A stretch of DNA of 64,000 bases from Candidatus Bathyarchaeota archaeon (GTDB lineage Archaea; Thermoproteota; Bathyarchaeia; Bathyarchaeales; Bathycorpusculaceae), in the NCBI GenBank assembly GCA_963739305.1, contig CAVTZU010000018.1:85682-149681 (forward strand). The letters run 5' to 3'. This document shows, in pieces, positions 24,599-43,264 of this stretch. The notes below the pieces were generated by a model. It made no database searches and had not been told where the DNA came from. It saw only the letters and a list, made by a program, of their open reading frames with translations. Position 1 is the stretch's first letter. Each line of letters begins with the position of its first letter. The position numbers were made by a program, and so were the translations under genes.

Positions 24599-25441
24599 CT
24601 AGTAGTCTGCTAAGCGCGCGATTGCACGAAAAGCAACTTGACGCACCCGCACGCTGTTATCGTGGTAGATGATGTCTCGACGTTGGTCCTTTAGGCTTGC
24701 ACTGAACAAGGGGGGTCCCCGGTTCCAGTCTCTATTATTGTATTTCTTTTGGTACAAACTAATCGCTGTACGCAATTCATTTGCAGTCAGGCTTCCCTTT
24801 ATAAGGTTTACACGATACGTCTTTTCGTAGCCTTTTCTAATAGCATTCTTCGTTTCTTCCATGGTAATGCTTTCCAGAATTTCAGACAGGTTCACCAAGA
24901 TAGTGTGGGGGTTTTGGATCTTAAGAGCGCGTCCTAAAGTGCTAAAGTCAACGTTTACCATCAAGGTGCCGTGATGAAGGATAGCATCATACAGTCTGTG
25001 TTGAGCGCTCCCAGAGATTTTCTTTCTCTCTACTACTATGTTTCCGTTATTGTTGCGAGCTTGAACGCTCAGCATCCCAAGTCCTTCGACGACTCCCCCG
25101 CAAAAGAAGCTGTAAGACCTTTCTACATTCTCGATACCAACGGCCAGAGAGGGCTTCCTGACAATTATCGAATAATTCACATTACCATAGTCATGATAAA
25201 CAGCCCCACCTCCGGAGACTCTTCTGAAGATTCTGATCCCCAGCTTTTCGCAGTCAACAATGCTAGTAACAGACTTGGGATCTTGGAAATGTCCAATGAC
25301 GACGGCTGGCGGATTCTGCCACAGACGCAGAGTGTTGGGACCATTATTCTCCAGAACGGATCTTAAAATCGCTTCATCAATTGCCAGATTCATCGCAGGA
25401 TCTTCGGAACTGTAGTCGATCATTCGCCAGTTATCAGTCAT
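24599..25441 (-). CDS. Lipoate-protein ligase A catalytic domain
   Basis: NLAIDEA, RRVSGGGAVYHD, KKISGSAQ and HHGTL motifs. Confidence 0.88.
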   Translation of the reverse strand: MTDNWRMIDYSSEDPAMNLAIDEAILRSVLENNGPNTLRLWQNPPAVVIGHFQDPKSVTSIVDCEKLGIRIFRRVSGGGAVYHDYGNVNYSIIVRKPSLAVGIENVERSYSFFCGGVVEGLGMLSVQARNNNGNIVVERKKISGSAQHRLYDAILHHGTLMVNVDFSTLGRALKIQNPHTILVNLSEILESITMEETKNAIRKGYEKTYRVNLIKGSLTANELRTAISLYQKKYNNRDWNRGPPLFSASLKDQRRDIIYHDNSVRVRQVAFRAIARLADY

Positions 25442-25476
25442 ATCTTGGGCACCTGTAATGAGTTTGGTGGAAGATC

Positions 25477-26559
25477 CTATTTTCCGGGCAATGCGGCCAC
25501 AACTGCGTTTCTCAGGCATTCCCTAGTGGGCAGGGTCTTATCAAATTTCAATTCTCCATTGATGATTATTGCAGGAATTCTGCTGCATTTTTCAGCATCT
25601 ATAAGGGCTGAGGACAACTCTGGATAGACTCCATGCTGATTTATCCCCTTTCCTCTCATCCAGACTCTCACTGTGATGTCATCTTGCAAGCCCGACGTGA
25701 CATCGTTGACAAGATTGATGAGCTTACGGCACATTGAAGTCGGAGGATAAGCAACAAAAACTTCAAGCGACGCTTTTCCCATCCCGACGAAGAAGGGTTC
25801 TATCCCGTGCACGTTCCATTTCTCAAGGTTATATTTGGCTCTGTACAGCAAATTAGTCGATTTCTGTTCGTCTTCTGTTAATTTCTTTTTCAATTCGAAG
25901 ACTATTCCCAACTTCTTCTCAAAGCCGTCTATAAGAGCTGTCTTTGCTTCTTCCATCGAAACGTCTTTTCTTAGTTGGCGTTTCAGCGATGTTATCATCA
26001 GCTTCTGTTCCGTTGGCTTTTCAGTTTTGATCATTTTGTTGTAAGCGTTCACGTCAGTATTAACGAGCAGAGTTCCTTGAAATAGAAGGAAATCGTGAAA
26101 CCATTTTGGCAAAATCCCAGTCATTCTTCGTTCGCCAATATGAATTCCATCGGCATTCGCCTCAAGTTTGTCACTGAATTTTCGGAGCCCTTCAACGATT
26201 GCTGCGTTCAAAATAAAATACTCTGACAGGACAGGCGGGTAATCCGTAGTTCGCGTGTTGAAAAGTGCGGCATTCGCTGTAACAGCAAAATTCAAACTCC
26301 CCATATCCATGTAGAAAGGGTCGGCTGTGACTGATATTGCTCTGATGACTTCAACACCGTGTTTCCTGCATTCCTTTTGGTTGACGTCATCCTTGTATGA
26401 ACTGCCCGATCCAATAATCACAGAGGCTGGGCCTCGCCATAGCCGCAGTGTGTTCGGAGTCAAATTCTCTCTTCTGCTTCTAAAAATGGCCTCATTAATT
26501 GCCAGATCCATTCTCGGGTCGGCTGAACCGAAGTCAAGTAATCTCCATGTCTCAGCCAA
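25477..26559 (-). CDS. Degenerate LplA-like protein with C-terminal thioredoxin-like domain
   Basis: LplA scaffold (TWRLLD, LAINEA, TLRLW, QGTLLV) with altered active-site motifs. C-terminus PPTSMC...IPAIIINGE. Confidence 0.72.
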   Translation of the reverse strand: MAETWRLLDFGSADPRMDLAINEAIFRSRRENLTPNTLRLWRGPASVIIGSGSSYKDDVNQKECRKHGVEVIRAISVTADPFYMDMGSLNFAVTANAALFNTRTTDYPPVLSEYFILNAAIVEGLRKFSDKLEANADGIHIGERRMTGILPKWFHDFLLFQGTLLVNTDVNAYNKMIKTEKPTEQKLMITSLKRQLRKDVSMEEAKTALIDGFEKKLGIVFELKKKLTEDEQKSTNLLYRAKYNLEKWNVHGIEPFFVGMGKASLEVFVAYPPTSMCRKLINLVNDVTSGLQDDITVRVWMRGKGINQHGVYPELSSALIDAEKCSRIPAIIINGELKFDKTLPTRECLRNAVVAALPGK

Positions 26560-27283
26560 GATTGTTCACCCCAAAGTAGGGACACTTGTTTCCTAAACAT
26601 TCTTTGTTGAGGTTTCTGAAATAGCAAGGGCGTGGATCTATCGAGTTGAGGGGTCTTATGTTAAATTCTCGTTCGAGGATCTCTGTTGCCTTCTGTACCG
26701 CTGAAAAAGTGCTTGCTTTGCAGCAACGCGGACCGCCAATCTTTGCGATCATGTGAAGGGATTCAGATACAGCTTCCATTGAAAGCGTCCGTTCTTTGTC
26801 TGATAGCATGTTGGCTTTGGTTGCAATGCTCAGGGCTATGCCTACTCCCGCGGCAGCCCCACAGACACCCCAAAGTCCACACGATGCAAGAAGTACTTTT
26901 CTTCCTCTTCTTATCGCTTCGTCAAATGCTGAATCGTTGATCCCAAATGTGCCCAAGTTTCTCCAAGCAGCTAGTAAGGCGCAGCTTACGACGTAGTGGT
27001 GCTCAGGGCCATGCATTTGGACTGCAGGATGCTTCATCAAGAGGAGAACAACTTTCATGGGATCCGTTTCTTTCGTGGCTCCGCAGACTTTGTGGACAAG
27101 CGTTTCAGGAGTGGCTAGCCTGCAGCTTTCACAAATGTAGTGTCCTTCTTCACAGACGTAGTCTGCTTTCTCAGTTTTTCCGCAAAAGGAACATTTCGTT
27201 GCTTCCGAGGTCGATCGCAAGGGCTTTCCACAGACCACACAATGGAATTCTTCCAGTTCTTCTGGAGACTGTTTCTTCTTCAG
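26552..27283 (-). CDS. DUF5714-like Cys-rich protein (probable CTG start at 27283)
   Basis: CVVC, CSFC, CEEGHYICESC, MHGPEHH, CGLWGVCGAA and GPRCCK motifs. Confidence 0.75.
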   Translation of the reverse strand: MKKKQSPEELEEFHCVVCGKPLRSTSEATKCSFCGKTEKADYVCEEGHYICESCRLATPETLVHKVCGATKETDPMKVVLLLMKHPAVQMHGPEHHYVVSCALLAAWRNLGTFGINDSAFDEAIRRGRKVLLASCGLWGVCGAAAGVGIALSIATKANMLSDKERTLSMEAVSESLHMIAKIGGPRCCKASTFSAVQKATEILEREFNIRPLNSIDPRPCYFRNLNKECLGNKCPYFGVNNLG

Positions 27284-27307
27284 TGTCTTTCCCTCCGCGC
27301 GCGATGC

Positions 27308-29235
27308 TCATCCCTTAATCTTGGCTAGAGGCTTTGGCTTACTCAGCAACAGTAAAGCGGAATTGATTACCACCGATATGCATCCGGCTTCTGCAAGAAC
27401 AACTGCTAGGACTGGATTCAGGATGCCAAAAGCGGCTAAACTCAATGCAACTATGTTCCAAATGAAGGCGTAAACTATGTTCCCCTTCATTCTGTTAAAT
27501 GCCTTCCGACTCAGGCTAATCGCATACTCAACCTTTGTCAAGTCGTCTCCAAGGAGAGCTACGTCAGCAGTCTCCACGCCACATCGCTGCCAGCCGCACC
27601 CATAGCAAACCCAACATCCGAATTAGCCAACGCAGGAGCATCATTCACGCCGTCACCAACCATCGCGACTATACTGCCTTTTCTCAGCTCCCCAATGGCC
27701 TCAACTTTCTGTTCTGGTAAAAGCTCAGCGCGGTACTCATCGACCCCGATCTGTTCAGCGATGGATTTGGCAGTCCTTGCGTTGTCGCCAGTTATCATGG
27801 CAGTTTTGACTCCTAAACGCTTAAGCCTTAGTATAGCTTCCAAGGAATTCTCCCTGACCGTGTCAGCCACCACGATGACGCCAATTACATTTTTGTCAAG
27901 TGCCACGGGAATAGCTGTTTTTCCCTCGCTTTCAACTTTACTCATCAATTGACTCGCTTCTTCTGAAATCATCCGTTCCCATCATCTTGGTTCCAATCAG
28001 GATGTGCTTGTTTCCGTAATGAGCATCCACGCCGTGCCCTGGAACAGTTTTGAAGTCTGTAGGATCAGGAATTTTCATGCCTCATCTCAGTTGCCTTAGC
28101 GATGATGGCTTTGGACAGGGGATGCTCTGAGAATTTCTCGGCAATTGCTGCATACTTGATCGTGTCCGCTTCAGAGTAATTTCCGAAGGTTTTTATCTCA
28201 ACAACCTTAGGTTCGCCTAGGGTTAACGTGCCAGTTTTGTCGAAGGCCACCAGCTTAATGTCCTTTAGCTTCTCGATGTGTGTGCCGCCCTTGATTATTA
28301 TGCCGTTCATGCTGGCATTACCGATAGTGCCCGCAACAGCGACTGGAACAGCTATGGAAAGCGCGCAAGGGCATGCGACTAAGAGAACAGTCACGGTTCT
28401 GGCCAATGCCACGTCAAAACCAAGTGCGAAGTAACTCACCGCAAAGACAGAAGATGCCAAAACTGCCATGATTGGCAAGAAGTAAGTGGTAAACCGATCT
28501 GCAATGTTCTGTATCGGTGCTTTTTTCTCTTGAGCTTCTTCAACAAGTTGAATGAGATGAGCAAGCGTAGTGTCCTCAGCGATTTTTTCAACTTTGATTT
28601 CCAGTGCTCCACGTTCATTGAGTGTTCCAGCAAATGTGCGGTCTCCCACCGTCTTTTCTACAGGAATCGACTCGCCAGTTATAGTTGCCTGATTAACCGT
28701 GCTGTGTCCGGAAATCACTGTTCCGTCAACGGGTATTTTGTCGCCTGGTTTGACTAAGAACGATTTCGTCCATCTTGACCTCGTCTACGGGTATTTCAAC
28801 TTCGGTGCCGTCTCGACGTATTCGAGCAGTGGTGGGGCTCATTTTAATGAGCTTCTCAAGTGCGCCTCTTGTTCTATGGATGATGTAGTCTTCAAGCGTC
28901 ATACCTGCAAGTATTATGAACGCCACTATCGCTGATGCCGTGAGGTAACCAACTGCTTCTGCCGTGCCAGTGGCCGATGCCGAAGGCAGTACGAGACCAG
29001 CTATTACTGAAATGAAGATGGCGATAGTTGCAAACAATTGAGCGGTAACGTTCCCATGCCGCAGGGATCGAATGCCATGCAAATAGATGCGGTAGCCCAA
29101 GGCAACGGCGATCAAAGTTAAAGCAATGCTAATTTCATGCGCATAAGCTACTTGAGTCCCAGATATTAGGGCCCCTGCTAGAATGAATAGCCCAAGTGAA
29201 GCGACAAGAAGTACGCCTTTAAAATGCTCTCTCAT
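27308..29235 (-). pseudogene. Heavy-metal P1B-type ATPase interrupted by four frameshifts (pseudogene or sequencing errors)
   Basis: TGES, CPC, DKTGT, SEHP, TGDN and GDGVNDAP motifs spread over four ORFs; shifts near 28757, 28080, 27972 and 27577. Confidence 0.85.
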
Positions 29236-29492
29236 TGGATTTCCTCTCTCGATACTATCTCGACTTGGTAGCCTAACTTTTCAATGCGCTCAGTGATCTT
29301 GGAGAAGCCAATTTTCTGTGTGTCGTATTCTATGCTGACTTTGCCGGTTATCTCGTCAACTTTGACTTTCGATACTCCGCTTAACCTTGCAAGTGCGTGC
29401 CTGAGGTTTTCTGCTGCAAAGTCTGAAGCACATGCTTTGCACCCTGTGCAGTCTATTTTCGCGGTATTCAAGATCATTTTTTCAACAGTCAC
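29232..29492 (-). CDS. Heavy-metal-associated (HMA) domain chaperone
   Basis: IDCTGCKAC and L.GV..V.V..I..LGY pattern; abuts the ATPase. Confidence 0.78.
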   Translation of the reverse strand: MTVEKMILNTAKIDCTGCKACASDFAAENLRHALARLSGVSKVKVDEITGKVSIEYDTQKIGFSKITERIEKLGYQVEIVSREEIQ

Positions 29493-29543
29493 GTTAAATC
29501 ACCTTCAGTTTGAGATTTTGCGTTGTCAAATTGCTCAACCCAT

Positions 29544-29873
29544 TTAACGGCATGTCACATGCTCAATAGCTTCCTTTGTCAAAGTGCCGACAACCTCAGG
29601 AGTCAAGCTATCGATAACATTGAAAACTCTCTTATCAACAATCGAATACATTCTTTTAGTTCCATCCTTTCGGCACCTAACTATCCCCACATCTTTCAGA
29701 ATTTTCAGATGCCGAGACACGACTGGCTGCATCAATCCAACATACGGTATTATTTCACACACGCACTTCTCCTTTGTGCGCAGGAATTCGAGTATTTCAA
29801 GTCTCGTCTGGTCAGAGAGGGCATTGAAGATTCTTGCCTTCAACCTAATTTGCCTGTCAGTTTCGTGATGCAT
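29544..29873 (-). CDS. ArsR/SmtB family repressor 1
   Basis: FNALSDQTRLEIL, EKCVCEI and VSRHLKIL motifs. Confidence 0.92.
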   Translation of the reverse strand: MHHETDRQIRLKARIFNALSDQTRLEILEFLRTKEKCVCEIIPYVGLMQPVVSRHLKILKDVGIVRCRKDGTKRMYSIVDKRVFNVIDSLTPEVVGTLTKEAIEHVTCR

Positions 29874-29894
29874 GTTTATGGTAGTAATAATAAG

Positions 29895-29913
29895 AATATT
29901 TAAATATTGCTAT
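29895..29913. promoter_or_regulatory. Palindromic bidirectional TATA box / putative ArsR operator AATATTTAAATATT(GCTAT)
   Basis: Identical 19-mer at 36302-36320, at the same distance from the second ArsR start. Confidence 0.75.
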
Positions 29914-29946
29914 TAATCTACTTTCATTCACTCGAGGTAACAATCA

Positions 29947-30321
29947 ATGTCTGACATCAAGGTCACCGAAAAAGGGCAAAAGATCCTGGCCGTTTGGCAT
30001 GGAGTTCCACGCAAAGAAATCGAGTGGCATCCCACGGTTGAAAAAGAGCTATGCATAGGATGCGGGTTATGTGTGCTTGGTTGCGGAGCCAATGTTTATG
30101 CGTTCGATTTCAGTGACAACAAACCAGTCGTCGTCGCACCTCTCAACTGTAAAGTAGGCTGCGTAACCTGCGCAAACACTTGCCCAGTGCATGCGATAAG
30201 CTTCCCGCCGCTTTCATACTTGCATAAAATAATCAAGGAAAAAAAGGTTCTCACCACCAGCAGAGACGAACTCAAGAAGAGTGCAGACAGAATAGGTTAC
30301 ACCTACAAGGACGTGGAATGA
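29947..30321 (+). CDS. 2x[4Fe-4S] ferredoxin family protein
   Basis: CIGCGLC, C.VGCVTCANTCP and N-terminal WHGVPR..I.W.P motifs. Confidence 0.85.
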   Translation: MSDIKVTEKGQKILAVWHGVPRKEIEWHPTVEKELCIGCGLCVLGCGANVYAFDFSDNKPVVVAPLNCKVGCVTCANTCPVHAISFPPLSYLHKIIKEKKVLTTSRDELKKSADRIGYTYKDVE

Positions 30322-30325
30322 TACG

Positions 30326-31081
30326 TTGAAAGGAGAATCAGACGTGCCTCAAACATCAAACTTCCAATATTCTCTTTCGCTCAAGGAAACACTTGGACTG
30401 AAGTGGTCACCAGTCGCGGTCAAACTGGTCAAACCTGATGAACCCATCAACGAAATCCCTCCAAAGTCTCCCAAGAGGCTACGGTACTGTCAACTTCTGA
30501 TGGAAGGAAAAAGGGGAAAAAGCGCGACTCTAACAAACGAAAACATTGCTTGTCCTGCTGCCGCGGCAGCTTTAGGGCTTATGCCTCTTCCTGAGAAGAT
30601 CAGCAGTGGGAAGATGCTTAAAACACTCGGCCTGTTTGAGTCTGAAGAGGCTGCAGCAAAGACGATGGCGCAAATGTCAAGAATAAAACTGGGAGATGTC
30701 AAAGCAATCGCTGCTGCTCCACTTGAAAATGCGACATTCAGACCAGACGTCGTCATAATTGAGGACAACCCCGAAAGAATAATGTGGGTAAATCTGGCCG
30801 CAATTCACGAAACCGGAGGACGTCTTTCTTTCAGCTCTGCCGTTTTTCAAGCTTGCTGCGTAGATGTGACGGTCATTCCATATCTTACCAAGAATGTCAA
30901 CGTTAGCCTAGGCTGTTATGGCTGCAGAGATGCCACCGACATAGCAGACGATGAATGTCTTGTTGGAATACCAATGGAAAAACTGGACGAAATAATCACA
31001 TCGCTTAAAGCCCTAGCCCAGAAAGCCATGCCCGAAGCCCGAAACAAAGGAGTCTACAACCAGTTCGTCAAGGTTCAATAG
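30326..31081 (+). CDS. DUF169 family protein
   Basis: PVAVK, RYCQ, ACP, PDVV and SLGCYGCR motifs. Confidence 0.8.
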   Translation: MKGESDVPQTSNFQYSLSLKETLGLKWSPVAVKLVKPDEPINEIPPKSPKRLRYCQLLMEGKRGKSATLTNENIACPAAAAALGLMPLPEKISSGKMLKTLGLFESEEAAAKTMAQMSRIKLGDVKAIAAAPLENATFRPDVVIIEDNPERIMWVNLAAIHETGGRLSFSSAVFQACCVDVTVIPYLTKNVNVSLGCYGCRDATDIADDECLVGIPMEKLDEIITSLKALAQKAMPEARNKGVYNQFVKVQ

Positions 31082-31112
31082 ACGCAGCTTATACACAAAA
31101 GAAGGTTTGAGC

Positions 31113-31484
31113 ATGGAAAAAGTCAAGGTAAGACTGGAAATCTATGAGGACGACCCGTTTGGAAGCACTTGCTGCGGCCCTGGTCCCCGAGTGACTTCTC
31201 TTGCAGCAGTAGAAAAGCTGCGGAGAATGTTGGAAGAACGGAGCGAAATAATGAACAGACTTTCAGAAGAATACAAAGACAGCGTCACCATAAAAAGAGA
31301 TACCATTAACCAGAAACGATGGGATTACCCAGAGTACGTAATGAGGCTAATGTTAGACAGCAAACCAACACCTTACATATTCATCGACGGGGAACCCGTC
31401 ATAGTCGGCAAATTTCCATCCTACGAAGAATTCATAGCGTTGCTGAAAGCAAGTTTGAGAAATGAGCAAAAACAAGGCCAATAG
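31113..31484 (+). CDS. ArsD-like / thioredoxin-fold protein with vicinal cysteines
   Basis: EIYE...TCCGPG and P.IFIDGE...GKFPS motifs. Confidence 0.6.
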   Translation: MEKVKVRLEIYEDDPFGSTCCGPGPRVTSLAAVEKLRRMLEERSEIMNRLSEEYKDSVTIKRDTINQKRWDYPEYVMRLMLDSKPTPYIFIDGEPVIVGKFPSYEEFIALLKASLRNEQKQGQ

Positions 31485-31833
31485 GCAAGACTTGATGGAT
31501 AGAGTTATCAGAATCAGAAGCTGGCAAGAATTCAAGCGCTTAGCTATCAATCTCAAACCTGAGTCCGTGGTTTACAACATAGAACAGAACGGTCTTTCTC
31601 CAGAAAGAGAGCTGACCTGTTTGAGGTTGATCATGCCGACTCAAGAAGTAGCGCGCGCGCTCTACTACATTTTCCTTGACTTCCCAAGAGAGGACGACTG
31701 CGGGAAACAGGCCATTCCAATACGAAAGGATAGAAAAGGGAACGGATGCCTGGAGGACAAAGATATAATAGATTTTCTCAAAACCCAACTAGAAATAAAG
31801 GATTTGACCGTCTGTTCGTACTGGACTATCTAG
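31462..31833 (+). CDS. Hypothetical protein (contains an internal CG-run motif)
   Basis: Protein-like ORF. An alternative-frame segment LRETG near 31695 hints at compensating indels. Confidence 0.55.
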   Translation: MSKNKANRQDLMDRVIRIRSWQEFKRLAINLKPESVVYNIEQNGLSPERELTCLRLIMPTQEVARALYYIFLDFPREDDCGKQAIPIRKDRKGNGCLEDKDIIDFLKTQLEIKDLTVCSYWTI

Positions 31834-31934
31834 TGGTCACACTTCAGAAGATGGCGCGCGCTATGCTTCTAGGGAAAATGTGCGTGCTAAATCTTAAATT
31901 CTGTCTGACTAATAGTGGGATTTGGTAATTTAGT

Positions 31935-32714: not shown

Positions 32715-32817
32715 CACCGCGAGCTATCGCCTTCCCTTTGGATCAAAAGAAGCCTATAAGGAGGGAAATAGCGCTCGCGACAGTAAGGGTATTCGCTCCA
32801 CAAATCAAGGTAGGAAT

Positions 32818-33441: not shown

Positions 33442-33496
33442 GCTTCATCCTCATTCTACTAGTCTTGAGTTGGCACCCTCACTTTAAGCTTGAAGA

Positions 33497-35911
33497 TTAA
33501 TCCTCAAGCGTTTTGAATTTGCGTGTTAGGTACACCTTGATTGGATCGTTGATTAGAAAAGTCGTTAACAGCGCGTAGCCCAAGATTGCAAGCAGAGGCA
33601 TGTAGCCGAGTGGGGCAAGCTCTAAGACGCCGAAGCTGGAGATAGCGATCACGAACAGGATTTCTGCTAAGACTGTAATGCCAAGCAACCTGCTGGGTCT
33701 TGACTTCCAGAAGTGGTTCCGCTCACGAACGATCATTAGCGTGGATATGCCTGCAAGGTTCAGGTAGGCAAACCCGAAAGTGTAGATTTTCTCAACATTC
33801 CCAATTAGCCCAAAGTATGATAGAGCAGGCACTGCAAAGAGTGCACTTTCAACCGTCATTAGTGCGCCTAGTGAGCCGCTGACTCCGAATAGCCGTCGCA
33901 TGTCGAAGGTGTCAGGCTTGAGAGAAGAGCGCACATTGTCTGTTGATATGGACATGGAGACAAAGTCGCCGAGGAAAAGTATCAGCACCGTGCCCGTTAT
34001 TGATAGCATTAATGAGTGGGTGAGGAAAAGCATCAAAACGATGAATCCAGCGATGTGCAGTTTGCGGGCGACCATCATTAAAGCCCAGCTATAGATTCTC
34101 TGATAAATCGTCCGCGAAGTCTTAATCATGGGTATTATTCCTCCAAGACCCTCAGCGGTGAGTACAGCGCTGGCGGAGTCTTTGGCGATGTCTGTTGCGT
34201 TCTTTACGGCGATTCCCACTTCCGCCTGCCCCAAAGCTGGAGCGTCGTTCACGCCATCTCCAGTCATCCCAACCACATGTCCTATGCGTTGCAGAGTCTT
34301 GACTATGCTGAATTTGTCTTCGGGGTAAATCTGGGCTATGCCGTGGCTGTCTTCAATCGTTGAGTCAATAGGTGTTGCCTTGGTTTCATCTTCCTGAATC
34401 TTCGACATCGTGGTGACCCTGCTGCCTAATCCTACCTGCTGCGCGATGTTTTTAGCAATGGGAAGCGAGTCGCCCGTAAGCATCTTCACTTCTACACCTA
34501 ACGCATGAATCTGCTCTATTATCTCGCGTGAATCTTCTCTAATCCTGTCAGCGATGCCTGCAAGACCAACAAACTCCAGTCTGCTCCGTTCAGCTCCCTT
34601 GGCGACAGCGATCACTCTTAACCCTTTTGCGGAGAGTTGCTCAGCAATCGTGACCATAGCCTTTGCTTCCTCTTCCCGAGCGTTGCAGACAGCGCATATT
34701 ACGTCAAAAGAGCCCTTTCCGACAAAGAATTTTTCGCCAGCTTTGTCGATTGTGGCTTCTGTCATTCTAGTTTTAGGGTCGAAGGGTATGAATTCCTTTT
34801 GTATGCAAGTATTCAAGGGTATACGTGCCTCTGCAGCAGCTGTTAAGAAAGCTATGTCGATTGGGTCCTGATTGGCTTCATTCGATGAAAGTGCCCCATA
34901 AAGCAACACGTCGCCTTCGCCAAATCCGTTAAGAGGAACTTCTTCTTCAACGAAGAGTTTGTTCATCGTAATTGTGCCCGTTTTGTCTGCACACAGAACA
35001 TCCATCGTGGCTGCGTCCTCGCTCGCGCTCAGTCTTGTGACTAGGACGCTTTGTTTTGCAAGCATTGCTGAGCCGAGTGCCATGTTTATGGTAAACATCG
35101 TGGGCATGGCGATCGGCACGGAGGCTACGAGCAACACGCCGGCAAGTGGCAACAATACGGCAAGGTCGAAACCAGTCAATACAGCGTAGACAAAGACTAT
35201 CAAGAGAGATGCAAGCACGATGATGGCGAGTCGGCGTGCTACGTTGACTGTGACTTCTTCCATGTGAAGTTTTGGTTTAGCCAGTTCGAGCAGGGAAATG
35301 GTTTTTCCAAAGTAGGTTTTCGTTCCTGTGGCGGCAACTGTACCTGTGGCTTCGCCGCGTTTTACAGCCGATCCCGAATAGGCTATCTCTCCAACACTCT
35401 TATCCACGATTCCAGACTCGCCAGTGAGCACGGATTGGTCCAAACCGAGAGAACCATCAACAATCTTTACATCCGCAGGCAAAAGATCGCCAATTCTGAC
35501 TCTAACGAGATCGCCGGGAACAAGCTCCCTAGCCGCGATGACGGCCCATTTTCCTTCTCTCTTGACTCTGCTCTGAATCCTTAGTCGCTGTTTTAGAGTT
35601 GCCATTGCAGCTTTTGCCCTTTTCTCCCGCCACAGCGACATTCCAGCGTTGAAAAGAAGAAGACCTATGATTACGGCTGCTTGCACATACTTACCTAACA
35701 CCAATGTGACGATTGCAGTAGCTTCAAGCATCCAAGGTACGATGCCCCAGAAACGTTTTCCAAGTCTATTCCAAAAACTGACTTTCTTCTCAGAAACCTC
35801 ATTGTACCCATACTTCGCAAGTCTCTTCTGGACTTCTTGTGCATCCAACCCATTTTCCAGATTTGTTCCTTTCAATTCTTGTTCTTTGTCGGAATCGTCC
35901 AAAATCTTCAC
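33497..35911 (-). CDS. Plasma-membrane proton-efflux P-type ATPase (P3A)
   Basis: TGES, SVPIAMP, DKTGT, PFDP, TGD and GDGVNDAP motifs. Confidence 0.85.
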   Translation of the reverse strand: MKILDDSDKEQELKGTNLENGLDAQEVQKRLAKYGYNEVSEKKVSFWNRLGKRFWGIVPWMLEATAIVTLVLGKYVQAAVIIGLLLFNAGMSLWREKRAKAAMATLKQRLRIQSRVKREGKWAVIAARELVPGDLVRVRIGDLLPADVKIVDGSLGLDQSVLTGESGIVDKSVGEIAYSGSAVKRGEATGTVAATGTKTYFGKTISLLELAKPKLHMEEVTVNVARRLAIIVLASLLIVFVYAVLTGFDLAVLLPLAGVLLVASVPIAMPTMFTINMALGSAMLAKQSVLVTRLSASEDAATMDVLCADKTGTITMNKLFVEEEVPLNGFGEGDVLLYGALSSNEANQDPIDIAFLTAAAEARIPLNTCIQKEFIPFDPKTRMTEATIDKAGEKFFVGKGSFDVICAVCNAREEEAKAMVTIAEQLSAKGLRVIAVAKGAERSRLEFVGLAGIADRIREDSREIIEQIHALGVEVKMLTGDSLPIAKNIAQQVGLGSRVTTMSKIQEDETKATPIDSTIEDSHGIAQIYPEDKFSIVKTLQRIGHVVGMTGDGVNDAPALGQAEVGIAVKNATDIAKDSASAVLTAEGLGGIIPMIKTSRTIYQRIYSWALMMVARKLHIAGFIVLMLFLTHSLMLSITGTVLILFLGDFVSMSISTDNVRSSLKPDTFDMRRLFGVSGSLGALMTVESALFAVPALSYFGLIGNVEKIYTFGFAYLNLAGISTLMIVRERNHFWKSRPSRLLGITVLAEILFVIAISSFGVLELAPLGYMPLLAILGYALLTTFLINDPIKVYLTRKFKTLED

Positions 35912-35956
35912 CCGAGTGCCTCTGTCTCACTTAATGAAAAAGCCAATATTGCCCCC

Positions 35957-36280
35957 TCAAACCAATTGTTCAACGATACGTTTTGAAAGAGTGCCTATCA
36001 GCTCCGGGGTCACCGCATCGATTATCTCTAATACTCTGCGATCTGTAATTGAGTAGAGTCTTCTGTTCGCGTTTTTTCTGTCCCTCACTAGCCCAGAGTC
36101 TTTGAGAATTTTCAAATGGCGGGACACCATGGGCTGGATAAGTCCAACATGTGGGATTATCTCGTACACGCATTTCTCGCCAGTGCGTAGGAATTCCAGG
36201 ATTTCAAGCCTCGTCGAGTCCGAAAGGGCATCGAAAACTTTAGTCTTGAACTTGACCAGTTTATCTGTCTGGGGGTGCAT
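35957..36280 (-). CDS. ArsR/SmtB family repressor 2 (paralogue of 29544..29873)
   Basis: FDALSDSTRLEIL, EKCVYEI and VSRHLKIL motifs. Confidence 0.92.
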   Translation of the reverse strand: MHPQTDKLVKFKTKVFDALSDSTRLEILEFLRTGEKCVYEIIPHVGLIQPMVSRHLKILKDSGLVRDRKNANRRLYSITDRRVLEIIDAVTPELIGTLSKRIVEQLV

Positions 36281-36300
36281 GTTTAAGGAAATATTGATGA

Positions 36301-36320
36301 CAATATTTAAATATTGCTAT
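36301..36320. promoter_or_regulatory. Palindromic bidirectional TATA box / putative ArsR operator CAATATTTAAATATTG
   Basis: Perfect 16-bp palindrome between divergent genes; the core matches 29895-29913. Confidence 0.75.
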
Positions 36321-36370
36321 GGATTACTCTATCTGCCAACGTGCGAAAGAACAAGAGAGCATGAAAAGAG

Positions 36371-36748
36371 GTGCAAATCGTGGAGAAAAAAAAGGCAAGT
36401 TTCATATTCTGTGTGTGCACGGGAAAGTGTAGTGGATTCAAGGATCTAGACATGTGGGACTTCGTTAACATCGTAAGAGCCGAGTATCCGGTCGAATATG
36501 CGTTCATACATCCCATGCTCTGTGATGAAGACGGGGAACGCTTCTTTGCAGACTTCCTCCGAAAAGATAGGGTATATTTCATCGCTGGCTGTGCTGCAGT
36601 GATGCAGAAAAAGCTCTTTCGAGACGCGTTTGAGAAAGCTGGACTTGACATAAACAAGGATCTAGTTCCTCTAGACGTCAGGAACATGACTACAGAAAAA
36701 GCATTGGAAACCGTGAAGAAAGCCTTGGAGGCTACAACCCAAACATGA
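36371..36748 (+). CDS. Stand-alone protein resembling the HdrA N-terminal Fe-S domain
   Basis: FCVC..C, MLC..DG, IAGC and F...EKAGL pattern. Confidence 0.6.
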   Translation: MQIVEKKKASFIFCVCTGKCSGFKDLDMWDFVNIVRAEYPVEYAFIHPMLCDEDGERFFADFLRKDRVYFIAGCAAVMQKKLFRDAFEKAGLDINKDLVPLDVRNMTTEKALETVKKALEATTQT

Positions 36749-37036
36749 CAGAAGAAACATACATGGGAGTTCCACGAAGCAAAATCCCTTGGTGCCCAAA
36801 GATCGATACAGCAAAATGTAACCAGTGCGAGGGCGACCCGCAATGCCTCAGATTCTGCCCCCATGGAGTGTTCGAATACAACAAGGAAAAGAAGGAATTC
36901 ATCGTCAAAAACCCAGAACAACTGCGTCGTGTTCTGCAGGGCATGCTCCAAAGTCTGCGCCGCGGACGCACTCAGTTTTCCAGAGAAGAAGGAAATTCTG
37001 AAGCTGATAAAAAATGTCCGAGAAGAAAAAAAGTAA
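36745..37036 (+). CDS. 2x[4Fe-4S] ferredoxin, frameshifted near 36915
   Basis: CNQC..QCLRFCP, then in the shifted frame NNCVVFCRACSKVCAADALSFP, ending at TAA 37036. Confidence 0.75.
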
Positions 37037-37418
37037 GTACATAATCATCCCGTGTAGCGGGATCGGAAAGGCACTCGGAACGATAACGCGTAGAGCCACG
37101 TACATCGTGACCGAAGAACTGTTGCCGAATGATACCGATTCTATTTGTCTTCCTTTGCTCACAATCGAAGACGAGGAGACTGTGCGGAAAATAAGAGAGA
37201 ACCCTTGCATAACCCTAGATGGCTGCGTTGCTCAATGTGCCAAGAAAAATGTTGAACACCATCACGGAGAACTCAAAGGAAGCATCAGGATCCTGGACGT
37301 GATCAAGGAGAATCCTAAGCTTAAGCCTGGAACGGTACTGGACATCGGACCTGACGGTGAGAAACTGGCAAGAAAAACAGCCGAAAAAGCCGTCAAAATC
37401 ATAGGAGATAAAAATTGA
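37014..37418 (+). CDS. DGC-domain putative zinc-binding protein
   Basis: PCSG...CL...DGC..QCA pattern. Confidence 0.8.
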   Translation: MSEKKKSKYIIIPCSGIGKALGTITRRATYIVTEELLPNDTDSICLPLLTIEDEETVRKIRENPCITLDGCVAQCAKKNVEHHHGELKGSIRILDVIKENPKLKPGTVLDIGPDGEKLARKTAEKAVKIIGDKN

Positions 37419-37822
37419 AGATCAAACGCAAAATCGGCTTAATCTCCTGCAGCGGAGAAGGGCTTCCTGAAGGAATGATATCCCGCGTAGCAACTCGAAG
37501 AATACTAGAAGAACGCGACGACGTCGTAACAATCTGCCTTCCTCTCTTTCTCGCAGGCGGACAAGAAGAGAGAGACTTCGCCAAGGACAATCCTTGCATA
37601 ACCGTTGACGGCTGCGACAAGATGTGTGCCGCCAAAGGCGTCCAAATGTACGGCAAAGTGCATCCCAAATCGTCAATAGTCATATCAGACATTGCAGAAA
37701 AACATAAACATCTTAAACCCAAATCAAAAAGCAGAATAGAACCTCAAGACGAGAAGCTTGTTAAAGAAACCATGAAACGCATTACTGAGGAGATAGACAG
37801 AGTAGAGGAGGAAGAAGAGTAG
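37415..37822 (+). CDS. DGC-domain putative zinc-binding protein
   Basis: SCSG...CL...DGCDKMCA pattern. Confidence 0.8.
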   Translation: MKIKRKIGLISCSGEGLPEGMISRVATRRILEERDDVVTICLPLFLAGGQEERDFAKDNPCITVDGCDKMCAAKGVQMYGKVHPKSSIVISDIAEKHKHLKPKSKSRIEPQDEKLVKETMKRITEEIDRVEEEEE

Positions 37823-37823
37823 C

Positions 37824-38630
37824 ATGTCAATAGAAAAGAAAGTTGCCGTTGCTGTTTGCACAGGCATGGACCGACCGCTTGCCACAGTGTCCAGATACGC
37901 AGGATACCATGTTCTAGAAAAACTGAGGCCAGACAAGACTGTCTTGCTTTGCACTCCAGCCCTAATAAGTGGCGTTAAAGAGGACGTGACCTTTGCCAAA
38001 GAGAACCCTATATTGGTCATCGATGGCTGTGAAGAGAGATGCTGCGAAAAGATAGTCAATGAAGCGAAAGGACAGATCAAAGCCATCATAAACGTTGAAG
38101 ACGTCCTGAAAGAACACGAGGACTTGCAGCCTGAGTCGAGAGCTAAGCTTGGGCCGAAAGGAATGAAACTTGCGGAAATAGTCGGAGAACTGGCCGCGAA
38201 GAAGGTCGATGAAATACTCGCAGGGGTGAAAGAGATGGAAGATAAGAAAGTCGCTATCGTAGCCTGCACTGGCATGGGAAAAGCACTTGGGACAGTAGCT
38301 CGACAGGTCGCCTTCAAGGTCGTGGATGAACTGCGACCTGGAAAAGCAGTGCTGATATGTATTCCATCTCTCACCGCAGGAGTCGGAGAATACAAGAACC
38401 TGTTGCAGAAGTATCCTTCCATCGTACTGGATGGTTGCGTGGAAAGGTGTGCCACTAAAATCATTTTCAAGAACAAAGGCATTATGAGGGCTAAAGTTTT
38501 CATGCCTCAAATGGTCGCAAAGTATGGCTTAAAGCCCCTGTCCCGAACTGACCTCGGTGAAGAAGGGGAGAAACTTGTTACGAAAATAGCTGAAGAAGTA
38601 GCCGCGTTAGTTGACCAGCTTTCAAGGTGA
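37824..38630 (+). CDS. Tandem double DGC-domain protein
   Basis: Two CTG...C...DGC.ERC repeats. Confidence 0.8.
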   Translation: MSIEKKVAVAVCTGMDRPLATVSRYAGYHVLEKLRPDKTVLLCTPALISGVKEDVTFAKENPILVIDGCEERCCEKIVNEAKGQIKAIINVEDVLKEHEDLQPESRAKLGPKGMKLAEIVGELAAKKVDEILAGVKEMEDKKVAIVACTGMGKALGTVARQVAFKVVDELRPGKAVLICIPSLTAGVGEYKNLLQKYPSIVLDGCVERCATKIIFKNKGIMRAKVFMPQMVAKYGLKPLSRTDLGEEGEKLVTKIAEEVAALVDQLSR

Positions 38631-38634
38631 AAAG

Positions 38635-39108
38635 ATGGAACAATTAGAACTGAAAGTTGACAAATATACGTTCATCGTTCCTAAAGGTCTCTACTACAAC
38701 GAGAATGATTTTTGGGCCAGAATTGAGGGCAAGATAGCAACCGTCGGCATAACGTCCTATCTGCAAAATCATTTGAGTGACATAGTCTTCGTCTCTCTCC
38801 CACAAATCGGCACCAAAATTGAACAATTCGGTGAAGCCGGATCCTTTGAATCAGTGAAGGCTGCTCTGGACGTTATATCACCTGTTTCAGGCTCAATAGT
38901 TGAAGTCAACAATGAATTAGTGAATTCGCCTGAACTTGCAAATTCAGATCCATATGGCAGAGGCTGGTTCGTGAAGATCGAGCTGACAGATTTTGAGTCA
39001 GACAAAGAGAATCTCATAGACGCAGAAGGCTACTTTGAGGTCATGAAGAAAAAAGTGGAAAAAGAACACGAGCAACTGAAACAAAAGCGAGCTGTAAACA
39101 CGACTTAG
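38635..39108 (+). CDS. Second GcvH-like lipoyl-carrier protein
   Basis: VGIT.YLQ, ESVKAA (lipoyl Lys) and NSDPYGRGW motifs. Confidence 0.88.
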   Translation: MEQLELKVDKYTFIVPKGLYYNENDFWARIEGKIATVGITSYLQNHLSDIVFVSLPQIGTKIEQFGEAGSFESVKAALDVISPVSGSIVEVNNELVNSPELANSDPYGRGWFVKIELTDFESDKENLIDAEGYFEVMKKKVEKEHEQLKQKRAVNTT

Positions 39109-39126
39109 AAAGAGGGCAGGCGAGTC

Positions 39127-39357
39127 GTGGAAACAAGTTTCAAGGAAATACGCGAGAAATATCGTTCTGTCAAGACCGGAAAGTCCAGCATTGACGTTTT
39201 CTCTCTGAAATCAGAAATTGAGACCTATGTGAAGAGTCAGCAAGGTTCGAAAACAAGAAACAGCAATTCTTTGGCGGAGGCAGAGGACATGTTGATTGAT
39301 GTGACACAGATGATTGAAGAGGGCCACTGCAACCCTCTAAGAAATAAGAAGCTGTAA
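39127..39357 (+). CDS. Small hypothetical protein
   Basis: ORF in the operon with a purine-rich leader. Confidence 0.5.
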   Translation: METSFKEIREKYRSVKTGKSSIDVFSLKSEIETYVKSQQGSKTRNSNSLAEAEDMLIDVTQMIEEGHCNPLRNKKL

Positions 39358-39441
39358 GTCATACTTCTGTCTGAGTTGGAACTATGAAGAAAATTCCGTT
39401 TGTCGCCCGCGCTAGTACTGAAATGAGGCTGTGATTAAGAC

Positions 39442-39876
39442 TTGGAAAAGACTAAAGTCATTTTTCTATGTGTAGGAAATTCGGCACGGAGCCAAATGGC
39501 TGAAGCATTCCTAAGAAAATATGCAGGTAATCATTTCGAGGTCTACAGTGCAGGCTTCGAACCCCGACCCATCCACCCTTACACCATCAAGGTGATGAGA
39601 GAACTGGGATATGACTTGAGTGGCCAGCATCCAAAGGAGTTGAAACAGTATCTTGGAAAGATACATTTCGGGATAGTCATAACAGTATGTGAAAAAGCAG
39701 AAAAGACGTGCCCTATGATACCAGGGGCATCCACTAGATTGTATTGGCCATTCGAAGACCCAGCAGCATTTCAAGGAACTGAAGAGGAGAAATTAGCCAA
39801 ATTCCGAGAAGTTCGAGATAAAATCAACGAAAAGATAAAAACATGGCTGAAAGACAGAGGCATCGCGGAAAACTGA
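39442..39876 (+). CDS. arsC: Arsenate reductase, LMW-PTP / thioredoxin-coupled type
   Basis: CVGNSARS, TVCEKAEKTCP and EDP motifs. Confidence 0.88.
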   Translation: MEKTKVIFLCVGNSARSQMAEAFLRKYAGNHFEVYSAGFEPRPIHPYTIKVMRELGYDLSGQHPKELKQYLGKIHFGIVITVCEKAEKTCPMIPGASTRLYWPFEDPAAFQGTEEEKLAKFREVRDKINEKIKTWLKDRGIAEN

Positions 39877-39991
39877 AAACCTCAAGATAATCGCGCGTCC
39901 AATATAGGCGATGAGGTTACGGTTAGTTTTCCAAGCGAAAAAAGTTATGTATTCGCATATGCAAGTGGATGGTTAAGGGAGGAATTAGCTG

Positions 39992-40654
39992 TTGAGTGAT
40001 CTCCTCTTGAAGTGGTTTGAGAAACGCAGAGAATCAAAAGCTTTAGCTCCGATGCAACGCCATCTTGCGATAACAATGAGCTCAGTTGAAGACCTTGAAA
40101 GTGCAGTAAAAGCAGCAGTTGATCTCAACGAAAAAGAAGCCAAGGCTGCAATAGGAAGGGTCACAAGTTCTGAGAAGGAAGCCGATGGACTGAGGAGAGC
40201 CGTTATGACTGAACTGGCATGCGGGGAGTTGCCGCCCTCAGACAGAGAATACCTGATGAACTTAATGAAGTCCGTCGACATGGTCGCAGACTGTAGCCAA
40301 GAATCAAGCCGGCTCTTGAGTGCCATTCCAATGGAAGATGTGTCAGAAAACCTCAAAAAAGCGCTGGTCAAGATGGTGGAAGGCGCTAAAGAATGTGCCA
40401 TGGCGCTGCGAAAATGCATTAATAGCATACCGGAAAAACGCGAAGAAGCCTTAAAAGCAGCAGACGAAGTCGAACGATTAGAAGAGAAAGTCGACGACCT
40501 ATTTGAAAACTCCAGACGTTTGATCGCCAGAGAGGAGAAGATTCGGGTAGGAACCGCCATATTACTGAATGATCTCTTTGAAGCTATTGAAATGGTTGCC
40601 AATCGATGTGAAGACGCCTGTGACCAAGTGAGAGTGATTGTCTGCTGCCGATAA
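39992..40654 (+). CDS. DUF47 / PhoU-like phosphate transport regulator
   Basis: E.EAD..RR, DRE and LEEKVD repeats. Confidence 0.8.
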   Translation: MSDLLLKWFEKRRESKALAPMQRHLAITMSSVEDLESAVKAAVDLNEKEAKAAIGRVTSSEKEADGLRRAVMTELACGELPPSDREYLMNLMKSVDMVADCSQESSRLLSAIPMEDVSENLKKALVKMVEGAKECAMALRKCINSIPEKREEALKAADEVERLEEKVDDLFENSRRLIAREEKIRVGTAILLNDLFEAIEMVANRCEDACDQVRVIVCCR

Positions 40655-40735
40655 ATGTTTTAGAAGGTGGATGGACGACTATCGTCCACGGTAATTGTCG
40701 TAGCGCACGCCAGTAACGCGACAAGGTGTTTGTGA

Positions 40736-41230
40736 ATGGAAAAGATAAAAGTTCTTTTTTTGTGTGAACATAATTCCGCCCGATCGCAGATGGCTGAAGG
40801 TTTGCTTAGGCATCTGTACGGTGAAAAGTATGAAGTGTTCAGCGCGGGCGCAAATCCGACGCAAGTCAATCCTTTTGCCATTAAGGTTATGGCCGAGATA
40901 GGGATAGATATTTCCAAGCAGACTTCCAAGAGCATTGAAGAGTTCCGAAACAAGGAAATCGACTTAGTCGTATCAGTGTGCAGAAGCAGTGCCAAGCTAA
41001 TGTGTTCATTGTGTTCTTCACCGATAGTCATGGGTAGACCAGAGATAATCAACACGACAATACCCGGAGCAAAACACTATCTTCACCATGGATTCAACGA
41101 TCCTTCTGAGGTGGACGGGAGTGACGAGGAAAAAACCAAGGCCTTCCGACGCACAAGAGATGACATCAAACAGTGGATAATCGATAAATTTGCCGATCCA
41201 AAGACAGTAAACTCGGACAATGATTTATAG
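40736..41230 (+). CDS. arsC: Second ArsC-like protein with an inserted Cys-containing loop
   Basis: CEHNSARS, SVCRSSAKLMCSLC and NDP motifs. Confidence 0.8.
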   Translation: MEKIKVLFLCEHNSARSQMAEGLLRHLYGEKYEVFSAGANPTQVNPFAIKVMAEIGIDISKQTSKSIEEFRNKEIDLVVSVCRSSAKLMCSLCSSPIVMGRPEIINTTIPGAKHYLHHGFNDPSEVDGSDEEKTKAFRRTRDDIKQWIIDKFADPKTVNSDNDL

Positions 41231-41347
41231 GCGCGCTCTGCGCGATGTCAATTGAAAAATGTTATCACTCCTAGGGCGCCTTACTAGTCTGCGCGTTGAT
41301 TGAGTACGGAGAATGTTTATTTGTCCGTCTTGCATCCTAAAGTTTGT

Positions 41348-43245: not shown

Positions 43246-43264
43246 TACGTCACCTCCATTTTCA

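Follow-up and report, generated by a model that had tools for sequence, protein, structure and literature searches.

We describe here a locus of a Candidatus Bathyarchaeota archaeon (GenBank assembly GCA_963739305.1) in which genes for proteins of the DGC family (PF08859) and for a lipoyl-carrier protein of the GcvH type, named here GcvH2, share one operon with genes for iron-sulfur (Fe-S) proteins and an arsenate reductase (ArsC), divergent from an arsR repressor gene. The stretch analysed, hereafter the window, comprises 64,000 nucleotides (nt) of contig CAVTZU010000018.1 (positions 85,682 to 149,681, forward strand). It holds an archaeal gene set, including an exosome subunit, RNA polymerase subunit L, TFS, a CTP-dependent riboflavin kinase and a fragment of an F420 ligase. 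Open reading frames (ORFs) were listed and scanned with Pfam (71 ORFs of the window in all, 29 of them at the focal region) and with NCBIfam. The genes named in an earlier reading of the same DNA, made from its letters alone (the sequence-only reading), were all found at the positions given there (table 1).

Two paralogous arsR genes, whose products are 62% identical, each face divergent genes. On the minus strand, arsR1 is followed by genes for an HMA protein, a P1B ATPase, a DUF5714 protein, an LplA-like protein with a thioredoxin-like tail and the lipoate-protein ligase LplA; opposite to it, on the plus strand, lie genes for a ferredoxin, a DUF169 protein and a protein of 125 amino acids (aa). 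Behind arsR2, also on the minus strand, there is a pump of the type-IIIA H+-ATPase kind, a gene that the sequence-only reading left unmentioned. The plus-strand genes opposite to arsR2 encode a small Cys-rich protein, a ferredoxin, DGC1, DGC2, the double protein DGC3-4, GcvH2, a 76-aa ORF and ArsC1, and then a DUF47 protein and ArsC2. From the small Cys-rich gene through gcvH2, neighbouring genes overlap or are 1-5 nt apart.

Table 1. Features of the two arsR divergons and the second gcvH gene, in window coordinates, with the matches on which each assignment is based
Feature	Position	Strand	Basis
LplA-type lipoate-protein ligase, catalytic subunit	24599..25441	-	PF21948 1e-48; ORF extends to 25519, likely start 25441
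LplA-like paralogue, degenerate active site and C-terminal thioredoxin-like domain	25477..26559	-	PF21948 2e-21
DUF5714 Cys-rich protein	26552..27238	-	PF18978 2e-56
P1B-type heavy-metal ATPase, broken	27308..29235	-	E1-E2_ATPase and Hydrolase fragments in four ORFs
HMA metal-binding protein	29232..29492	-	PF00403 4.8e-9
ArsR1, ArsR/SmtB repressor, CVC intact	29544..29873	-	PF01022 1.3e-16; NF033788 above cut-off
Shared 19-nt element, copy 1	29895..29913		exact 19-mer, 14-nt palindrome
4Fe-4S dicluster ferredoxin-like protein	29947..30321	+	several Fer4 families, best 6.5e-8
DUF169 protein	30326..31081	+	PF02596 1.9e-63
125-aa protein with Cys-Cys pair	31107..31484	+	Thioredoxin_3 0.0045; TIGR00412 0.0088 (weak thioredoxin-like)
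P-type ATPase, plasma-membrane H+ (IIIA) type	33497..35911	-	TIGR01647 681 bits, above cut-off
ArsR2	35957..36280	-	Pfam, NCBIfam, alignment with ArsR1
Shared 19-nt element, copy 2	36302..36320		exact 19-mer, 14-nt core
Small Cys-rich 125-aa protein, probably Fe-S, HdrA-like look-alike	36371..36748	+	Atlas only
Ferredoxin, frameshifted	36745..37036	+	Pfam; frame comparison with relatives
DGC1	37014..37418	+	PF08859 3.3e-16
DGC2	37415..37822	+	PF08859 1.2e-16
DGC3-DGC4 double protein	37824..38630	+	PF08859, two domains
GcvH2, lipoyl-carrier H-protein	38635..39108	+	PF01597 4.9e-37
76-aa ORF, conserved	39127..39357	+	without Pfam or NCBIfam family
ArsC1, LMWP-family thioredoxin-type arsenate reductase	39442..39876	+	PF01451; TIGR02691 2.9e-39 (below cut-off)
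DUF47/PhoU-like protein	39992..40654	+	PF01865 2.9e-25
ArsC2, second LMWP-family arsenate reductase-like protein	40736..41230	+	Pfam, NCBIfam
GcvH1, second gcvH	16886..17296	-	Pfam/NCBIfam

The association between DGC and the lipoyl carrier is the central finding at this locus. GcvH2 carries its lipoyl Lys in an ESVKA motif, and this residue was invariant in 33 of 33 aligned sequences. We searched a collection of 5.8 billion proteins with GcvH2 for homologues longer than 275 aa (E<=0.001), and all 94 of those recovered contained both PF01597 and PF08859. These DGC-GcvH fusions, of about 280-326 aa, share 48-60% identity with GcvH2 and belong, where a source is named, to Desulfotomaculaceae, Dehalobacterium, Desulfitobacteriaceae, Bacteroidales and Paludibacteraceae, that is, to anaerobic Bacillota and Bacteroidales. 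In the six sequences inspected the DGC domain is N-terminal and the GcvH domain C-terminal, which is also the order of the archaeal genes, and the H-part of the fusions retains the N-terminal extension and the C-terminal helix typical of GcvH2. Among 59 aligned fusions, three DGC cysteines and the lipoyl Lys were invariant and the fourth Cys was conserved in at least 90%. The fused DGC domain was nearest to DGC4, encoded just before GcvH2, in 75 of the 94 cases, to DGC1 in 18 and to DGC2 in one.

The AlphaFold2 (AF2) model of one fusion, P0295, consists of two confident domains and a disordered linker (pLDDT 88.9, pTM 0.54), an architecture that would suit a tethered carrier arm; given this pTM we claim no fixed interface between the domains. 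Predictions of complexes of DGC1, DGC2 and DGC3-4 with GcvH2 gave ipSAE scores of 0.01 and 0.00, which speak neither for nor against binding. In a tblastn search of plasmids DGC1 was without match, and P0295 was matched in 154 records by its ordinary gcvH part only, none of them covering 80% of the query.

All four DGC domains of the window are recognized by PF08859 (E 3e-16 to 4e-30), and a phmmer search of 1.84 billion representatives returned 350 members of the family at E<=0.001. In an alignment of 55 DGC sequences G70, C71 and C75 were invariant, C14 was near-invariant and C45 was common, and the four conserved cysteines are kept in each window domain. The AF2 model of DGC1 (pLDDT 95.2, pTM 0.89) places these cysteines behind strands 1, 2 and 3 and at the beginning of the helix that comes next, from which we infer a Cys cluster at the C-terminal edge of the sheet. 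The predicted fold is only generically flavodoxin-like: a Foldseek search of the model against the PDB gave no match at E<=0.001, the best one being to a flavodoxin (2fz5, E 7.5e-3, TM 0.35), and a profile built from the 55 sequences had no match among PDB sequences at E<=1.

A scan of GTDB species genomes with GcvH2 yielded 17 loci, six of them from Bathyarchaeia (L001-L006) and 11 distant. Their neighbouring genes were sought by tblastn with the window proteins within 10 kb of GcvH2, complemented by Pfam scans of parts of the loci. The closest relatives of GcvH2 were found in Bathyarchaeia metagenome-assembled genomes, being 81-91% identical in L001-L006. The arrangement of arsR divergent from the genes for the small Fe-S protein, the ferredoxin, DGC1-4 and GcvH2 is kept in all four loci that span the operon (L001-L004), and the module is kept in the other two as far as their contigs extend, that of L005 beginning inside DGC1 and that of L006 inside GcvH2. 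Orthologues of the small HdrA-like gene are 86-91% identical in L001-L004, and those of the 76-aa ORF are 59-71% identical in L001, L002, L005 and L006. With or without this ORF in between, a gene for an LMWP-type ArsC follows GcvH2 in the window and in five of the six loci (L001, L002, L003, L005 and L006), and the ArsC-type genes found there belong to three LMWP subtypes.

Trees of H-proteins separated the Bathyarchaeia GcvH2, the fused H-domains and a further DGC-linked sequence, P0198, from GcvH proteins linked to gcvT/P (support 100/100, and 100 in the SH-like approximate likelihood ratio test, SH-aLRT). The far side of this split consisted of nine gcvT/P-linked H-proteins and the GcvH1 of the window, so that the comparison with true GcvH proposed by the sequence-only reading places GcvH2 outside the gcvT/P-linked group and GcvH1 inside it. 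Monophyly of the 31 DGC-linked rows, P0198 excluded, was not rejected by an approximately unbiased (AU) test (p 0.136). P0198, which sits on a long branch, was considered as a fusion in the reverse order, GcvH-DGC, and rejected as such, since it is a read-through across two neighbouring genes, with filler that is out of frame between them; it was used as a case of DGC adjacency only. The fusions and the DGC-linked clade indicate that DGC and the lipoyl carrier form a conserved, undescribed module, and with the conserved operon they bear out the sequence-only proposal that the two belong together.

By sequence, GcvH2 resembles true H-proteins: it passes the gcvH equivalog model TIGR00527 (132.7 bits, cut-off 115.85), and its best solved relatives in the PDB are all named GcvH. 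Such similarity would favour an ordinary H-protein of glycine cleavage that merely adjoins unrelated genes. However, this explanation is largely refuted by the fully supported separate clade and by the DGC fusion in every longer homologue, and we regard it as very unlikely. The gene context also argues against it, since no GcvT, GcvP or 2-oxoacid dehydrogenase domain was found among the 71 window ORFs, as had been claimed before, and neither gcvT nor gcvP was seen in L001-L006 (by Pfam scans of parts of these loci, tblastn covering window-type genes only). Among the eleven distant GcvH loci, in contrast, which are 39-49% identical to GcvH2 and have no DGC by tblastn, six of the nine scanned with Pfam (all but L010 and L012) have gcvT and/or gcvP adjacent; of the others, L011 has SHMT and L009 and L015 have neither. 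The statement that the carrier is not tied to gcvPT therefore stands.

The second gcvH of the window lies at 16886, where the sequence-only reading had placed it, but its label as a housekeeping gcvH did not hold, the gene pairing with a CoA-disulfide-reductase-like gene and not with gcvPT. The GcvH1 gene overlaps the start of a gene for a pyridine-nucleotide disulfide oxidoreductase (window 15528-17296, minus strand for the pair; CoA-disulfide reductase 4e-113, below cut-off, and lipoamide dehydrogenase 2.6e-43), and Pfam found neither gcvT nor gcvP near it in the window. GcvH1 and its oxidoreductase could constitute a second stand-alone lipoyl-carrier pair.

The regulatory DNA ties the DGC operon to the arsR1 divergon. 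The claim that both divergons share one palindrome was confirmed by the 19-mer AATATTTAAATATTGCTAT, of which the 64 kb contain exact copies only at 29895-29913 and 36302-36320, one in each intergenic region; 0.01 would be expected by chance, and the observed copy number was reached in none of 100 shuffles. The core of this element is a perfect 14-nt palindrome located about 21 nt upstream of the start codon of either arsR. An identical core occurs once in the intergenic region between arsR and the operon in all four relatives (L001-L004), where the neighbouring intergenic DNA is divergent. Inside the core there is a TTTAAATA-type sequence, which we take to be the archaeal TATA consensus, and for this reason the element is possibly promoter and operator in one. 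It may thus represent a candidate ArsR operator overlapping a bidirectional TATA-like box.

Several features bear out the metalloid context, in agreement with the sequence-only reading. The As(III)-site motif CVC is intact in ArsR1 and, by alignment, in all four arsR orthologues adjoining the DGC operon in the relatives. ArsC1 matched the B. subtilis ArsC structure 1jl3 at 3e-32, with the CX5R loop and both resolving cysteines aligned, that is, with the three catalytic cysteines of thioredoxin-type enzymes, and scored 134 with TIGR02691 (equivalog cut-off 174). Exporters of As(III) of the Acr3, ArsB or ArsP type were not found among the window ORFs (Pfam), but an Acr3/SBF-family gene lies directly behind arsR in L003 (6272-7327), where the window has the H+-ATPase. 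Orthologues of the latter, 77% identical, occupy the same place in L001 (4912-7293) and L002 (4910-7312). A DGC gene is also reported from an arsenic-induced ars operon of P. mercurii (see below), which adds to the arsenic link. Taken together, and at the level of comparative genomics, the operon, the fusions and the regulatory context make it highly probable that DGC and GcvH2 act together, under ArsR control and in an arsenic context.

What they might do there can be approached from the electron carriers of the operon. No thioredoxin or thioredoxin reductase was found in it by Pfam, although two Fe-S-type proteins are present. One of these is the ferredoxin. For the other, the small 125-aa protein, look-alike clusters of the Atlas, a language-model search, are named "heterodisulfide reductase subunit A-like protein" (score 0.96), in agreement, as a lead only, with the earlier label HdrA-N-like; that label gained nothing from Pfam and NCBIfam, which gave no match, or from PDB sequences, which matched at chance level only.

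We tentatively favour a relay in which electrons would pass from ferredoxin to DGC, from DGC to lipoyl-GcvH2 and from there to ArsC, a model that, taken whole, falls somewhat short of an even chance. In it, ArsR1 and ArsR2 bound to the shared palindrome would keep both divergent promoter pairs closed until As(III) occupies the CVC site. GcvH2 would be lipoylated by the linked LplA, as its lipoyl Lys and the ligase motifs suggest. The small HdrA-like protein and the ferredoxin would deliver low-potential electrons to a four-Cys metal or Fe-S centre of DGC, and this centre would reduce the lipoyl disulfide on the swinging arm of GcvH2. Dihydrolipoyl-GcvH2 could then re-reduce the Cys82-Cys89-type disulfide of ArsC in place of thioredoxin, and it may also retain the As(III) product until export. 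We favour this relay because the operon has electron carriers and no thioredoxin system, because several ArsC subtypes stay with the carrier, and because lipoyl proteins can feed thioredoxin-like acceptors elsewhere, as in Lpd-SucB-AhpD.

Clusters of ars genes with their own thioredoxin system exist. The Bathyarchaeia loci resemble these, and ArsR-ArsC and Acr3 operons of the pI258 or B. subtilis type, in the CVC-bearing ArsR, the LMWP-type ArsC with three cysteines, the acr3 of one relative and the encoding of a reductant supply together with ArsC. They differ in having a lipoyl carrier, four DGC domains and two Fe-S proteins instead of a thioredoxin system, and in the absence of an As(III) exporter from the window divergon.

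As(III) binds tightly to vicinal dithiols such as dihydrolipoate and prefers three sulfur ligands, and in ArsD, which passes metalloid to ArsA, there is a model for a chaperone. The main rival to the relay, which we consider unlikely, is accordingly a metalloid buffer or chaperone: dihydrolipoyl-GcvH2 and the DGC cysteines would bind As(III), or else a trivalent organoarsenical produced by ArsC, and shield it or hand it to an exporter (Acr3 or another pump), the Fe-S proteins only keeping the arm reduced. The three near-invariant cysteines of DGC with a common fourth would fit such binding, four DGC domains per carrier suit a stoichiometric role, and acr3 lies in the same divergon in L003. Moreover, the one paper found to name PF08859 reports for Pseudodesulfovibrio mercurii ND132 an ArsR5-ArsP-ArsE-DGC operon that is up-regulated by arsenic and has no GcvH (10.1101/2022.10.17.512643). 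This operon shares with ours a PF08859 gene under ArsR and a thioredoxin-like partner, but it has a single DGC, also lacks an HdrA-like protein and ferredoxin, and belongs to a context of organoarsenical efflux. A stoichiometric sink would, however, be costly, two electron-transfer proteins suit catalysis better than binding, and in the window, L001 and L002 the divergon has no exporter gene and encodes an H+-ATPase-type pump instead.

The relay also has to be weighed against a more general thiol-disulfide or sulfane-sulfur stress relay, comparable to Lpd-SucB-AhpD or sHdr-LbpA, in which the signal sensed by the repressor would not be arsenic and the ArsC-like genes would be neighbours under common control. 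The sHdr-LbpA system comprises a lipoyl carrier of the GcvH type that stands alone, Fe-S proteins of Hdr-related and ferredoxin type, a dedicated ligase and an ArsR-family repressor (Cao et al. 2018, PMC6067878; Tanabe et al. 2023, PMC10332631), and regulation of this sulfur system by ArsR-type repressors is likewise stated in a further source (PMC12423496). It is the known system closest in logic to ours, which also has a lone lipoyl carrier without glycine-cleavage partners, Fe-S proteins, a ligase and ArsR-family control. The occurrence of the bacterial fusions in many anaerobes, with the arsenic link known from the archaeal loci only, and the lack of CVC in the ArsR2 of the window would also fit a signal other than arsenic. 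Nevertheless, we judge this alternative distinctly unlikely in view of the CVC motif of ArsR1 and the four orthologues, the persistence of ArsC-type genes of three subtypes beside GcvH2 and the acr3 of L003. In addition, HdrB (CCG), HdrC-type, DsrE and TusA domains were not found among the 71 window ORFs scanned.

The module differs from sHdr-LbpA in lacking the Hdr subunits that define that system and in having another partner domain. The window lacks HdrB, full HdrA, HdrC, DsrE, TusA and radical-SAM LipS genes (no radical-SAM gene of any kind was found by Pfam among the window ORFs scanned); both the window and L004 have a ligase, and LipS1/LipS2-type radical-SAM proteins were not found in the window. 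The partner here is the uncharacterised DGC, GcvH2 is closest to true GcvH by PDB sequence matches, and the context is that of arsR, arsC and acr3 in anaerobes and not that of sulfur oxidation.

Other lipoyl-protein redox relays are GcvH-L with LplA2 and SirTM in Streptococcus and Lpd-SucB-AhpD-AhpC in Mycobacterium. Like these, our module would have a lipoylated carrier working outside the classical complexes in stress defence, in one of them with its own ligase, but the locus lacks sirtuin, macrodomain, Lpd and peroxiredoxin genes and ferredoxin appears to supply its electrons. To PDB entry 5a35 of the Streptococcus system GcvH2 shows no more than remote similarity (8e-4). We therefore place the module with the stand-alone lipoyl-carrier systems, and there is a real chance that it represents a new enzyme class.

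A dedicated ligase is linked to the carrier in part of the loci: the ligase trio is near GcvH2 in the window and in L004 but does not lie within 10 kb of it in L001-L003. LplA gave PDB matches to LplA proteins from 3e-25, with the KK(I/F)xGxAQ Lys motif aligned and both the GGGAVYHD loop and the invariant Lys present, and it has an 83% identical orthologue downstream of GcvH2 in L004. In its LplA-like paralogue, the window copy and the L004 copy both have other residues at the GGGAVYHD loop, and the catalytic Lys is an Arg in the window and a Lys in L004; owing to the loss of the loop this protein is probably not a ligase. Its tail (residues 277-353) gave a weak match to the HUIPC thioredoxin-like family (2.9e-4). 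Thus, of the earlier description as an LplA-like/thioredoxin protein, the tail persists, on a weak match, but the ligase active site is degenerate. DUF5714 is similar to the N-terminal half of MbdU, a metal-binding family (NF045648 4.6e-47, below cut-off), and has a 92% identical orthologue upstream of the LplA pair in L004. The reference families MbdU ("metal-binding double selenoprotein") and HUIPC (a (seleno)protein family) are selenoproteins elsewhere, and the window genes are Cys versions with no in-frame stop. In L004, GcvH2 is followed on the same strand by genes for a CBS-pair protein, DUF5714, the LplA-like/thioredoxin-like protein and LplA, and then by a different ArsR, an HMA protein and a P1B ATPase, so that the ligase trio is joined there to the carrier operon.

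These genes raise the possibility that the system protects or repairs lipoylation, with LplA, the LplA-like protein, DUF5714 and DGC stripping As(III) from the lipoyl arm of the H-protein or remaking it, and GcvH2 being a protected substrate or a decoy. The LplA-like domain, degenerate and joined to a thioredoxin-like domain, could bind to a lipoylated H-protein but carry out no ligation, and the trio is headed by ArsR1 in the window and comes after GcvH2 in L004. On the other hand, the window has no lipoyl-dependent dehydrogenase and no gcvT/gcvP that would need protection, the trio is missing from the surveyed surroundings of GcvH2 in L001-L003, and the fusion in bacteria speaks for a standing module in which DGC acts on GcvH2 itself. 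We give this explanation little chance.

Some observations weigh against the ferredoxin-to-ArsC relay or limit it. The four cysteines of DGC could hold Zn or As(III) instead of an Fe-S cluster, four DGC paralogues exceed the needs of a simple reductase, and, with no Foldseek match at the threshold used, the fold of DGC gives no functional hint. ArsC could draw on the ordinary thioredoxin of the cell, and in L004 no ArsC was found by tblastn on its 9.7-kb contig. The DUF5714/LplA-like/LplA trio accompanies the carrier only in the window and L004. The arsenic link of the module is known from the Bathyarchaeia loci and not from the bacterial fusions. Finally, the ArsR2 of the window has CVY in place of CVC and Ser in place of the second conserved Cys, and its operon ferredoxin is frameshifted, so that the window copy may be partly decayed or may bear assembly indels.

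Two indels were recognized in this copy by comparison with the relatives. In the DGC-operon ferredoxin, one inserted nucleotide near 36915, absent from all four relatives, shifts the second Cys motif into another frame. DGC3 and DGC4, which are separate, overlapping ORFs in all five relatives, are fused here by a 1-nt deletion (about 38235); a word-based search with the double DGC returned 9 matches only, because the relatives hold two separate short genes. Such indels may reflect real mutation and gene decay or errors of the (long-read) assembly. The P1B ATPase placed under ArsR1 by the sequence-only reading is indeed there, but three-frame translation spreads its reading over at least four frames, with single-base indels interrupting the gene at four or more points; it may be a pseudogene or the product of assembly errors.

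A broader claim goes with the relay: that a distinct H-protein clade has DGC as its catalytic partner, the two forming a ferredoxin-driven lipoyl-protein reductase that would provide strict anaerobes among Bathyarchaeia, Bacillota and Bacteroidales with a low-potential dithiol relay based on lipoate, which in Bathyarchaeia would replace thioredoxin in arsenate reduction. As judged from gene content this is rather doubtful, yet its implications are considerable. Lipoate bound to protein is known from a handful of enzyme complexes and, more recently, from sHdr-LbpA, so that the claim, if true, would add a further use of lipoate in anaerobes, a third non-canonical role after sHdr-LbpA and GcvH-L. 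It would also provide the first function for DGC, a functional handle on DUF5714, the degenerate LplA-thioredoxin-like fusion and the small HdrA-like proteins, and an electron supply for thioredoxin-type ArsC in a ferredoxin-based metabolism. At least 94 bacterial protein clusters have the two domains fused, and in Bathyarchaeia the pair shares its operon with arsR, arsC and once acr3. Given the abundance of Bathyarchaeia in sediments and peat, the module may be relevant to arsenic cycling in these settings, and since tractable bacteria (Desulfitobacteriaceae) carry the fusion, the hypothesis is testable with recombinant proteins.

Searches of the open full-text literature, with subscription-only papers and supplements lying outside it, turned up no description of DUF5714, of a DGC-GcvH pairing or of a lipoate ligase or an H-protein in ars operons, nor anything relevant on COG4273 or on DUF169 with arsenic, and no link between Bathyarchaeia arsenate reductase and lipoate; the DGC domain together with arsenic led only to work on diguanylate cyclases.

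No orthologue of DUF169 was found by tblastn within 10 kb of GcvH2 in L001-L006, and the ferredoxin at 29947-30321 is about 32% identical to the DGC-operon ferredoxin of the relatives. The 125-aa protein at 31107-31484 had been called ArsD-like, a name we do not retain: it gave no match to PF06953 at E<=0.01, and an ArsD cluster appeared in the Atlas only at rank 29 (score 0.83). Orthologues of ArsC2, 94-95% identical, are present in L001 and L002, and a DUF47 gene occupies the same place in L002.

Downstream of ArsC2, a fluoride riboswitch (RF01734; 49.8 bits, gathering score 34) lies at 41341-41417 on the plus strand, between ArsC2 and an MFS gene (41585-42841) and about 170 nt before the first possible start of the latter. 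The MFS gene was considered as an arsenical exporter, and this was rejected on account of the riboswitch that precedes it; MFS is an unusual gene class behind a fluoride riboswitch. The riboswitch was not found in L001-L005.

In the relatives, a gene for an HxlR-type regulator lies downstream of ArsC on the opposite (minus) strand in L001 (11466-11885), L003 (11180-11593) and L005 (2758-3147), and is not there in the window. L003 also has a phage-type integrase and an Mrr-family restriction endonuclease (1088-5204) a few kb from its acr3-arsR side, which hints at mobility of the locus; in the window, a DDE transposase is located at 63006-63992, and tRNA genes are absent. Window positions 42868-45190 encode a NifX/FeMo-cofactor-binding-like protein, a DUF134 + NUBPL/Mrp-type P-loop ATPase and a CGGC-domain protein. 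A relationship between the latter and DGC was considered and rejected (profile comparison probability 0.9%). Genes of the NifX-like and Mrp-like types also occur 6-7 kb from GcvH2 in L001 and L002.

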